Shown here one piece after another: positions 20,677-22,632 of a DNA stretch of 64,000 bases (its first letter is position 1; each line of letters opens with the position of its first letter). The stretch is from Chlamydiales bacterium (lineage in GTDB: Bacteria > Chlamydiota > Chlamydiia > Chlamydiales > JAAKFR01). The DNA is taken from positions 6,856-70,855 of the forward strand of contig JAJACG010000004.1 of assembly GCA_022601635.1 (NCBI GenBank). Reading direction: 5' to 3'. The position numbers were made by a program, and so were the translations under genes. The notes beneath the pieces were generated by a model, which was not told the origin of the DNA, searched no databases, and worked only from the letters and a program-made list of their open reading frames with translations.

Positions 20677-20815
20677 CGTCTTCCTCGCGAAATATTTGGT
20701 ACTTTGTCTCTTCGAGATCGTCAAAGTGCCCTTTTTTCATTTGACGCAAGAAGATGACAAAGGCTGCAAAGCCTGTGAGCAAGGAGAATAGCACAAAACA
20801 TATTATTTCCATCAT
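20669..20815 (-). CDS. CcoS/FixS-like micro-protein (48 aa)
   Basis: [48 protein letters not shown], close to the CcoS consensus (TM helix + GQFDDLE...IL.DDD). ATGA overlap with the upstream stop. Confidence 0.55.
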
Positions 20816-22632
20816 CCAATCCAACGAAATGAGTAGTTCATTACATCCATCGTGACTGCTTGGGTGGGGCACTTCTCCGCACAAAGACCGCAGCGAATAC
20901 AGAGATCCTCATCCTTCAACATCGCTGTCCCAAGTTGGTCCAACTCCCGATTGCTCATAGTCGCTGAGTCAACTCCAAAGTAGTTGTCGACAGCTTTTCG
21001 CAAGTCATTTTGATCGAGATTCATCGAGGAAAGTGTTACCTGCTTCAAACAATTGGTCGGACAGACATCCACACAACCATTACACTTAATACAGAGAGAG
21101 CCATCAAAAACAGGTGATACATGACACTGTAAACAGCGATTCGCCTGCTTGTGAACCTCCTCAGCAGTATAGTTGTTCTCCACAAGCCTCAGATCTCTCT
21201 TGCGTTGATCTGCTGGCTGCATCGTCGGCAGCGCCCACACCTCTCGCAGATAGCTCTTGTCACGCATCGGAGGTATTGTAACAAACTCACCCAAAAACTC
21301 CTGATAGGGCTTTGTTCCACGAAGATCAGAGTCGATCGAAAGTGCCGCTTCCTGTCCATGCTTCACCGCTGTAATAAATAGTGCCGGTCCAAATGCTGCA
21401 TCACCACCAGCATAAACGCCTTTGAGTGACGTTCTGCATGTTCCCTTTTCTGTTTTAATGACTCCCCGTTCCTGTTCAATCTCCTCATCCCAACCATCAA
21501 AGATAGAGGTATCCATTGATTGGCCAATTGCCAAAATGATTGTATCGCATGGAATGACAAATTCTGTATCGGGAATGAAGTCAGGTGCAAATTGTCGATC
21601 TGCATCAAACAGAGAGCGAATACGCTGCAGACGAATACCAGCAACTTTGCCATCACCAGAGCGCTCTACATCGATTGGACCCACTCTATTGACAATCTCA
21701 ATTCCCTCTTCAACACCATCTTCAATTTCAAACTCATCAGCTGTCTGCTCATCGCGTGACTCTAAGCAGACCATCGTCACATGATCTGCCCCATTGCGCA
21801 CAGAGGAACGTGCTACATCAAAGGCGACATTTCCTCCACCAATCACCACTACTCGTTTGCCAATCTCCCACTTCTCATCGGCACACAGTTTGCGCAAATA
21901 CTCGACACCACGAATGATGTCAGGCTTTTGGAAGGCCTCCATTGGCAGTTCGCGACTAAGCCAAAGACCATTGCCAATGAAAACAGCATCATAGCGTTTT
22001 CTCAACTCACTCATTGTGATGTCTTTGCCAACTTTGGTGTTGTAAAAGACTTTGGCACCCAGATATTCGATAGCGTGACACTCATTGATCGCCACATCAT
22101 TTTTCAAGCGGTAGTTAGGCACGCCGTAGGTGAGCATACCACCTGGAAGTGGCATCTGTTCATAGACATCAACTCTATAGCCTAAGCGCAGAAGGTCATG
22201 GGAGCAAGTCAAACTCGCCACACCAGCGCCGATGCAGGCAACTGAGAGGCCATTTGGTTTGGGAGTGGTTGATCCGCGCGCGTAGCTATATTCGAGCGAT
22301 TTGATGTGCGCCTCTTTGTCGAGACCAAACCACTCATCAAGGTAGCGCTTTTGTGCGCGGATAGTGAGTGTCTTGTCAACACGGTCACGACGACAGGCGA
22401 TTTCGCATGGAGCGCCGCAGATAATACCGCAGATTGAAGCAAAAGGATTGGGGCCGCGCGCAATTTTATAGCCCTCCATCAGATCACCTGCGTGGATTGC
22501 CATCATGTATCCGCGACCATCTGTTTTGACAGGACAGCCGTGGCGACAATCAATTTGCCGCAAAAAGTAGTCAAGATCAGGAATGACCACCTCATAGGCT
22601 TCTCGATAGATTTTCTTCAGCTCTTCACTCAT
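20812..22632 (-). CDS. GltD-like NAD(P)H-dependent FAD oxidoreductase with a C-terminal 2x[4Fe-4S] ferredoxin domain, 606 aa
   Basis: N-terminal Cys-rich Fe-S region (CRHGCPVKTDGRGY, CGIICGAPCEIAC). Two dinucleotide folds (VACIGAGVASLT, VVVIGGGNVAFDVA). C-terminal CIKCNGCVDVCP and CIRCGLCAEKCP. Confidence 0.8.
   Translation of the reverse strand: MSEELKKIYREAYEVVIPDLDYFLRQIDCRHGCPVKTDGRGYMMAIHAGDLMEGYKIARGPNPFASICGIICGAPCEIACRRDRVDKTLTIRAQKRYLDEWFGLDKEAHIKSLEYSYARGSTTPKPNGLSVACIGAGVASLTCSHDLLRLGYRVDVYEQMPLPGGMLTYGVPNYRLKNDVAINECHAIEYLGAKVFYNTKVGKDITMSELRKRYDAVFIGNGLWLSRELPMEAFQKPDIIRGVEYLRKLCADEKWEIGKRVVVIGGGNVAFDVARSSVRNGADHVTMVCLESRDEQTADEFEIEDGVEEGIEIVNRVGPIDVERSGDGKVAGIRLQRIRSLFDADRQFAPDFIPDTEFVIPCDTIILAIGQSMDTSIFDGWDEEIEQERGVIKTEKGTCRTSLKGVYAGGDAAFGPALFITAVKHGQEAALSIDSDLRGTKPYQEFLGEFVTIPPMRDKSYLREVWALPTMQPADQRKRDLRLVENNYTAEEVHKQANRCLQCHVSPVFDGSLCIKCNGCVDVCPTNCLKQVTLSSMNLDQNDLRKAVDNYFGVDSATMSNRELDQLGTAMLKDEDLCIRCGLCAEKCPTQAVTMDVMNYSFRWIG

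Follow-up and report, generated by a model that had tools for sequence, protein, structure and literature searches.

We found that a seven-gene respiratory operon of a Chlamydiales bacterium begins with the gene for a 606-residue iron-sulphur (Fe-S) flavoprotein, hereafter the oxidoreductase (OR), which, judged by its sequence, is a member of the flavoprotein family linked to Rieske/cytochrome b (R/b) complexes and carries the family-level sequence features that we tested. The operon lies in a stretch of 64,000 nucleotides of contig JAJACG010000004.1 (the window), at positions 13059-22632 on the reverse strand, and encodes in this order the OR, CcoS, a Rieske protein, a fused cytochrome b, a heptahaem cytochrome c, CcoN and CcoO. 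The family is that of Kuste4570 and Kustd1483, the putative NAD(P) reductases of two R/b complexes of the anammox bacterium Kuenenia (PMC12954380). The linkage of the OR to the cytochrome bc genes is not coincidental, and we consider it highly probable that the OR is a subunit of the R/b complex on its cytoplasmic n-side. The best explanation as a whole, in which the OR is such a subunit and electrons flow inward from NADH, is one to which we give just under an even chance.

The flavoprotein, its anammox relatives and its nucleotide site

The preliminary description of this DNA, made from the letters alone, had given the gene as a 606-residue frame with a GltD-type Fe-S region, two dinucleotide-binding folds and a C-terminal 2x[4Fe-4S] domain, and the open reading frame (ORF), Pfam and AlphaFold2 agree on all of these. 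Pfam places Fer4_20, the Fe-S domain of the dihydropyrimidine dehydrogenase (DPD)/GltD type, at residues 28-102 (E 3.9e-13) and Pyr_redox_2 at residues 130-426 (E 1.3e-22), with Pyr_redox at 260-336 and NAD_binding_8 at 134-176, corresponding to the two dinucleotide folds of the pyridine-nucleotide-disulfide oxidoreductase superfamily, and ferredoxin-type Fer4 motifs at 507-536 and 573-593. The pattern CxxCxxCxxxCP occurs twice, at 514-525 and 578-589, and the ferredoxin domain to which it belongs carries a helical insert of about 50 residues. The FAD fold has the motif GAGVAS (135-140) and the NAD fold the motif GGGNVA (265-270), with Glu291 closing beta2 (VCLES). No transmembrane segment is predicted anywhere in the OR. 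Sixteen cysteines (29, 33, 68, 72, 76, 80, 500, 503, 514, 517, 520, 524, 578, 581, 584 and 588) are kept in 29/29 chlamydial ORs and would suffice for four Fe-S clusters, C500 and C503 being the RCLxC pair, which we presume, by motif homology with DPD and NfnB, to belong to the GltD-type clusters.

The AlphaFold2 model, built on 79 sequences, has a pLDDT of 94 and a pTM of 0.91, and its top Foldseek matches are 9bov_A (E 4e-48), 9n5u_A, 8oh5_C, 5jca_L and 4ylf_B. The first of these and 9bp5 are one protein; it also ranks first by sequence (phmmer E 1.6e-85), and 5t5i_F matches the C-terminal ferredoxin part. Since 7636 database proteins match the OR at E<=1e-20 and the model is confident, the domain assignment lies far beyond chance. 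Among NCBIfam models the top one is PRK12771, "NAD(P)-binding protein", with 395 bits, under its cut-off of 516, and the gltA/gltD models also miss their cut-offs (TIGR01316, 256 against 471.75; TIGR01318, 202.5 against 482.95; TIGR01317, 165 against 447.7). We therefore rejected GltD or NfnB proper as an identity of the OR, given these scores under the curated cut-offs and gene neighbours that are ccoS and enolase; neither nfnA nor gltB nor another candidate partner lies near the OR gene.

The preliminary description had pointed to anammox R/b complexes with an NAD(P) oxidoreductase, and this agrees with published work, in which four Fe-S clusters are proposed to lead from FAD to an extra haem b at the cytochrome b dimer interface, a haem predicted with AlphaFold 3 and ligated by His43 or His62 (PMC12954380). 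According to a passage of PMC5600118 that cites de Almeida 2016, the Kuenenia complexes contain both cytochrome b and the oxidoreductase, and the binding of the latter to the cytoplasmic face of the cytochrome b dimer has been modelled with AlphaFold 3 (PMC12954380). Upon comparing the OR by blastp with the Kustd1483 orthologue of a Kuenenia-like contig (locus L117, fetched with the printed Kustd1480 sequence; gene order Rieske, cytochrome b, OR, subunit IV, octahaem cytochrome c), we observed 31.5% identity over 600 residues (13-601 against 3-564; E 1.4e-90). Additionally, the best two PDB matches of the window Rieske protein are 9rk3 (Kustd1480, E 3e-16) and 9rk4 (Kuste4569, E 2.8e-14), and His50 of the window cytochrome b (FLH50IHP) aligns with His62 of the L117 cytochrome b (FLH62LHP), the residue predicted in Kustd1481 to ligate the extra haem. 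In a rough neighbour-joining tree, the R/b-linked ORs form one clade apart from other GltD-like architectures; within it the chlamydial ORs are monophyletic and lie inside a larger, main clade as sister to locus L034, and the Kuenenia-like OR sits in a smaller deep clade apart from the chlamydial branch. A phylogeny had been suggested as a check on the anammox connection, and its outcome is divided, with the OR grouping with R/b-linked proteins but in a subclade separate from the anammox one.

Next, we examined the site that distinguishes the nucleotides. In Rossmann folds, Glu at the end of beta2 is the NADH-type residue and Arg-Arg the NADPH-type pair. At the site of window residues 290-292 we observed (L/M)-E-x in 29/29 chlamydial ORs, with Glu also in nearly all main-clade proteins, R-R-x in 12/12 ORs of the Kuenenia subclade, and Arg-Arg at the end of beta2 also in NfnB, GltD and DPD. 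By this rule Glu291 predicts that the chlamydial OR prefers NADH over NADPH, and the distribution suggests that one module exists within the family in an NADH-type and an NADPH-type version. The link to NAD(P) in general that had first been described is thereby narrowed for the chlamydial proteins to a predicted link to NADH, the NADPH-type pair being that of the anammox subclade.

Conservation of the link to Rieske and cytochrome b genes

We scanned genomes, taking one per species, and found 32 with an OR 66-82% identical to that of the window; all 32 are Chlamydiota (Parachlamydiaceae, Waddliaceae, Protochlamydia and other lineages), which supports a chlamydial origin of the window. A ccoS-like ORF and a Rieske gene lie directly downstream of the OR in 32/32 loci, the ccoS-like ORFs being detected by tblastn at E<=1e-3, with some matches weak and short. 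The order OR, ccoS, Rieske, cytochrome b, cytochrome c is kept in 32/32, with cytochrome b itself detected in 29, and ccoN/ccoO follow in 18 of the 32; in many of the others the fetched flank stops too early to show them. In two chlamydial metagenome-assembled genomes (L015 and L031) the OR, ccoS-like ORF and Rieske gene are present and tblastn finds no cytochrome b in the flank, which in L031 is also without cytochrome c; rearrangement, decay or an assembly problem could account for this.

When the protein library was clustered at 50% identity, the chlamydial ORs formed one cluster, and their nearest non-chlamydial relatives are full-length proteins of the same architecture with roughly 35-45% identity (about 44% or less). 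We looked up four of their genome contexts, and in 4/4 Rieske, cytochrome b6, subunit IV and multihaem cytochrome c genes adjoin the OR, with Rieske and/or cytochrome b directly downstream. Furthermore, a profile of the non-chlamydial relatives retrieved 80 metagenome loci, of which 73 have Rieske and/or cytochrome b directly downstream of the OR; of the seven negative loci, four end within 650 nucleotides of the OR gene, and three are true negatives, among them L115, which the tree places outside the R/b-linked clade. Two clade members, L037 and L112, have no detectable Rieske/cytochrome b in over 5 kb of sequence downstream, and their partners may lie upstream or elsewhere, or they may have been secondarily uncoupled. 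Two gene orders occur among the relatives, OR-Rieske-cytochrome b-subunit IV and OR-cytochrome b-subunit IV-Rieske, and therefore the association has survived rearrangement. The earlier proposal had named absence of the gene from the operon in related genomes as what would refute it, and the conserved order in all chlamydial loci and nearly all non-chlamydial relatives rejects that objection.

The named organisms among the non-chlamydial relatives are Nitrospirota, KSB1, Anaerolineae, Caldilineae and "Ca. Angelobacter", and most main-clade carriers appear to be soil or peat metagenome bacteria, as inferred from sample types and a few names. Among non-chlamydial loci the nearest is L034, in which fixS and ccoN/ccoO are present as well. 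We rejected the idea that the OR works with the cbb3 oxidase instead of the bc complex, as most non-chlamydial relatives have Rieske/cytochrome b and no oxidase genes in the fetched flanks. An odd fusion was seen in L035, an Anaerolineae metagenome-assembled genome, in which a product of more than 1198 residues (11524-14549, forward strand), downstream of an OR-cytochrome b-subunit IV-Rieske-cytochrome c cluster, joins Fer4_20, Pyr_redox_2 and Fer4 to several cytochrome c domains and runs off the end of the locus, thus combining a cytoplasmic-type flavoprotein with periplasmic-type haem domains.

Upon examining the literature, we observe that the window cytochrome b, with its APWY motif and four bis-His haem b ligands, fits the class described as the APWY clade, subfamily G or group A2. 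The APWY clade was defined by Kao & Hunte (PMC4122944), and the long, fused cytochromes b of subfamily G lack the haem cn motif (PMC5600118), as does the window protein. According to Dibrova et al. 2017 (PMC5600118), large Fe-S proteins that bind NAD(P) accompany subfamily G in planctomycetes and "in many other cases", and the cytochromes b of Parachlamydia and Waddlia were grouped with Kuenenia 1 and 2 (Baymann et al. 2012, PMC3509893). A chlamydial counterpart of the anammox subunit had been called unexpected, which was overstated, because the module is common in environmental chlamydiae and occurs in several phyla, its pairing with this class of cytochrome b was already in print, and so was the grouping of chlamydial with Kuenenia cytochrome b. 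Dharamshi et al. 2023 describe "PetBD" and cbb3 in chlamydial respiratory chains, with the OR subunit unmentioned, and our literature search returned no paper on the OR subunit in chlamydiae and none that relevantly joins chlamydiae, cbb3 and Rieske. The OR is a further member of a widespread, biochemically uncharacterised module and no surprise in itself. What is new, as far as we found, is that ccoS, bc and cbb3 genes share one operon, how broadly the family is distributed, and that it is divided by Glu and Arg-Arg.

Direction of electron flow

In the mechanism that we favour, the OR would be a peripheral cytoplasmic subunit of an R/b complex of the APWY/subfamily G/group A2 class. Hydride would be exchanged between its NAD fold and FAD, and single electrons would pass along four Fe-S clusters, of which the GltD-type domain and the C-terminal ferredoxin domain would hold two each, to the n-side of the cytochrome b dimer; their point of entry would be haem bN or an extra haem bound by His50. 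With flow directed inward, NADH would reduce the quinone, presumably menaquinone, at or beside the Qn site; quinol would then be oxidised at Qo, and its electrons would go to the Rieske protein, the heptahaem cytochrome c and the cbb3 oxidase of the same operon, the seven genes forming a self-contained NADH-to-O2 chain. That electrons run in this direction, from NADH to the n-side of cytochrome b, is in our judgement close to a balanced question. Inward flow is favoured because Glu291 is an NADH-type motif, because the characterised GltD-type modules (the glutamate synthase beta subunit and DPD) are input devices that pass electrons from NAD(P)H to Fe-S clusters, because the host lives heterotrophically and its operon also encodes a terminal oxidase, and because the flow would be downhill and require no disabled Qn site. 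The disabling of Qn is the main difficulty of the outward model (PMC12954380).

Several observations weigh against this NADH-input mechanism. The window Rieske protein carries the same Ser/Tyr pair as the Rieske protein Kuste4569, which has a potential of +303 mV, and the combination of a high-potential Rieske protein with menaquinone has been taken as an argument for b haems of very low potential and for electrons leaving outward to NAD(P)+ (PMC12954380), an argument that applies here if the quinone is menaquinone. Environmental chlamydiae are reported to have Nqr and Nuo already (Dharamshi et al. 2023), so that an extra NADH input is not obviously needed, and according to Kao & Hunte no APWY-type complex has been characterised (PMC4122944). 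The physical attachment of the OR to cytochrome b is inferred from the Kuenenia complexome work cited in PMC5600118, and the third Gly of the FAD motif is replaced by Ser in the chlamydial ORs (GAGVAS). Finally, the nucleotide preference depends on one motif, and the tree is computed from 549 columns with no bootstrap and with the GltD, NfnB and SudA references left out.

The model of the anammox field, which the preliminary description had carried over to this operon, runs in the opposite direction, with a quinol-driven bifurcation in which the oxidase reaction would pay for the formation of NAD(P)H. One electron from Qo would go through the Rieske protein, cytochrome c and cbb3 to O2, and the other through haems bP and bN, the extra haem if present, four Fe-S clusters and FAD to NAD(P)+. 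We regard this as somewhat unlikely, even though the OR is homologous to the Kuenenia subunits for which the model was proposed, the Rieske protein has the high-potential pair, the candidate ligand of the extra haem is conserved, a very strong acceptor (O2 via cbb3) is made available by the same operon, and the Qo motif APWY has no acidic residue and defines a clade tied to non-canonical or reverse operation (PMC4122944). Bifurcation is unproven even in anammox and needs quinone reduction at Qn to be suppressed; moreover, the chlamydial subclade has the NADH-type Glu and not the NADPH-type Arg-Arg of anammox, the host is an intracellular heterotroph without evident need for NADH from quinol, and most main-clade carriers, going by their soil and peat origins, are probably not chemolithoautotrophs. 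The bifurcation idea has the standing of a proposal, even for anammox, and the presence of cbb3 in the operon of a heterotroph makes NADH input at least as likely. That the chlamydial complex performs bifurcation of the anammox type as such, with the low-potential branch ending in NAD+ and the cbb3 branch paying for NADH made from menaquinol, we consider unlikely.

Two further readings assign the OR a lesser part. As a redox valve or sensor, an attached OR would pass electrons either way between the n-side haems and the NAD+/NADH pool so as to keep the two in equilibrium, and could relieve over-reduction of cytochrome b and limit reactive oxygen at low O2 without carrying the main flux. An Fe-S wire allows flow both ways, the host habitat is micro-oxic with a high-affinity cbb3 oxidase encoded alongside, and a peroxiredoxin gene lies nearby, but these points are not specific to a valve, and a 606-residue, four-cluster subunit encoded first in the operon and conserved across phyla suggests a core catalytic role, so that we find this reading improbable. 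The OR could instead be an independent soluble enzyme of the NfnB/SudA/GltD kind, acting as an NAD(P)H:ferredoxin oxidoreductase or with a partner of the glutamate-synthase type and merely co-transcribed, as its lack of a transmembrane segment and its closest solved structures, the soluble Nfn/Stn enzymes, might lead one to expect. This we hold to be very improbable, given that the neighbouring genes include neither nfnA nor gltB nor any other partner, that the OR scores under the cut-offs of all gltA/gltD models, that its adjacency to Rieske/cytochrome b is kept from Chlamydiota to Kuenenia despite shuffling of the gene order, that the one clear outlier without R/b context (L115) lies outside the clade, and that cytochrome b and the oxidoreductase are found together in the Kuenenia complexes, as stated in the passage of PMC5600118 citing de Almeida 2016.

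The finding bears on how these organisms respire. Published chlamydial schemes list only "PetBD" and cbb3, to which the OR would add a direct connection from the NAD pool to complex III; the gene arrangement also suggests a single-operon NADH-to-O2 chain in chlamydiae. To our knowledge, more than a decade of discussion of R/b complexes that have a cytoplasmic Fe-S flavoprotein with an NAD(P) site has been confined to slow-growing anammox enrichments, and none of these complexes is known to have been assayed. The module heads a bc-cbb3 operon in environmental chlamydiae and is also found in many soil and freshwater bacteria, which widens the choice of experimental systems; these may include, if the operon is present in them, amoeba-grown chlamydiae and cultivable Acidobacteria or Chloroflexi. 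The analysis offers a concrete, testable prediction of which nucleotide is preferred and which way electrons run. If bifurcation were true, quinone-based electron bifurcation to pyridine nucleotides would be widespread in aerobic heterotrophs and endosymbionts, with two OR subclades tuned to NADH (Glu) and NADPH (Arg-Arg).

The operon, its neighbours and known systems

Table 1. Genes of the bc-cbb3 operon in the window, in order of transcription.
Feature	Position	Strand	Remarks
OR (606-aa Fe-S flavoprotein)	20812..22632	-	ATG start; first gene of operon
ccoS/fixS	20669..20815	-	48 aa, single helix, transmembrane 1-26, acidic tail
Rieske [2Fe-2S] subunit	20167..20724	-	alternative ATG start at 20676; overlaps ccoS end
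Fused cytochrome b (b6 + subunit IV)	18839..20167	-	442 aa
Heptahaem cytochrome c	15563..18838	-	1091 aa, membrane-anchored
ccoN, haem-copper oxidase subunit I	14170..15573	-	COX1, E 2.5e-84
ccoO/fixO-like monohaem subunit	13059..14180	-	~200-aa N-terminal extension; last packed gene

The genes of the operon (Table 1) abut or overlap by 1-11 nucleotides, with the exception of ccoS and Rieske, which overlap by about 56 nucleotides with the TTG start of the Rieske gene or by 8 with its ATG start. The start codon of ccoS overlaps the stop codon of the OR gene as ATGA in TGGATTGGATGATGGAA; the fusion by ATGA that had been described thus stands, whereas any reading of the next gene as Rieske does not, the gene in question being ccoS. 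Its 48-residue product is a FixS/CcoS protein by PF03597 (30.2 bits against a cut-off of 23.1), with an NCBIfam ccoS score of 20.8, under the cut-off of 28.35. FixS/CcoS is a maturation protein of cbb3 oxidases that acts in the insertion of cofactors into CcoN, and a role in the bc part, for example with the predicted extra haem, is raised here as a question only.

The Rieske protein has a Tat-type RRKF signal, one transmembrane helix and the cluster motifs CTHLGC and CPCHGSTY, the latter containing the Ser/Tyr pair. The GTG start of the cytochrome b gene overlaps the Rieske stop codon (TAGTG); in its product the haem ligands His 119/133/224/239 are conserved, APWY stands at 349-352, and the n-side His50 is conserved throughout the family. 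The haem cn cysteine (CxGG) is absent from the window cytochrome b and from all 29 chlamydial cytochromes b, which have TLGLG instead, and some non-chlamydial relatives carry CMGG or CLGG. The heptahaem cytochrome c has CxxCH at 77, 157, 231, 422, 538, 726 and 873 and CcoP-like C-terminal class I domains, and its gene end is overlapped by the ccoN start by 11 nucleotides; it may replace both cytochrome c1/f and CcoP and thereby join the complexes as a supercomplex.

The enolase gene is divergent and begins 46 bp upstream of the OR gene. Consensus scans of positions 12600-22900 gave no excess of promoters (12 sites against 11.5 in shuffled sequence) or terminators (10 against 10.8) and, since these counts match shuffled sequence, are uninformative on the operon boundaries. 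The window DNA was found in three sponge-metagenome DNA runs, and none of the RNA runs contained it. The peroxiredoxin ORF (24386-25201, reverse strand) has 271 residues as called, with an AhpC/TSA domain from residue 79, and runs as called through a tRNA-Arg(ACG) gene (24998-25073, reverse strand), the true start probably being the Met at about residue 75. Just past the end of the oxidase operon, two adjoining ORFs of about 410 residues with sulfotransferase domains (PF00685; 10351-12766, forward strand) are unusual for a chlamydia and possibly related to host interaction.

When compared with known systems, the OR has its best sequence and fold matches in the GltD-like domain of the Bfu-type NfnABC/StnABC enzymes (9bov, 9n5u, 8oh5) and in NfnB of NfnAB (4ylf, 5jca), with which it shares the FAD and NAD(P) folds, two N-terminal Fe-S clusters and the RCLxC pair after the flavoprotein core. 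Those enzymes, however, are soluble, NADPH-specific (YRR) and flavin-based bifurcating, with other partners, whereas the OR has a single Fe-S path to its ferredoxin domain, no gene for an NfnA/HydB-type partner and an adjoining membrane bc complex. Flavin-based bifurcation at the FAD of the OR, as in NfnB, was judged unlikely in view of that one path and the lack of a second acceptor module. GltD and the N-terminal half of DPD resemble the OR as input modules of the kind NAD(P)H to FAD to two [4Fe-4S] clusters, but differ in that the OR is far under the family cut-offs, has no gltB nearby, and possesses an extra ferredoxin domain and another nucleotide motif. The ferredoxin:NADP+ reductase bound to the chloroplast b6f complex is likewise an n-side NAD(P)(H) flavoprotein, thought to feed Qn (Zhang et al. 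2001, as cited in a passage of PMC5600118), but has an unrelated fold of the plant type and no Fe-S wire, is encoded apart and needs soluble ferredoxin.

The closest comparison is with Kuenenia. The Kuenenia OR shares with that of the window the domain order, the Cys motifs except Cys68, RCLxC and the C-terminal "...AITM..F" tail, Kustd1483 has the same closest solved structure (9bov/9bp5), and at the Kuenenia-like locus the OR is likewise encoded with Rieske, cytochrome b and a multihaem cytochrome c. The Kuenenia subclade differs in having Arg-Arg-x at the nucleotide-specificity position, where the chlamydial ORs have Leu-Glu-x, and the Kuenenia-like OR has Leu in place of the extra Cys68. 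With this Cys, the FAD-proximal cluster, for which the Kuenenia model shows 3Fe-4S, may be complete and all-Cys in the chlamydial ORs. In contrast to Kuenenia, the window OR comes first in its operon and is followed by ccoS, its cytochrome b is fused and without the haem cn cysteine where that of Kuenenia is split, b6-type and has CxGG, and the operon ends in a cbb3 oxidase rather than an HAO-like protein. The hosts differ too, that of the window OR being an intracellular heterotroph and not an anammox autotroph.

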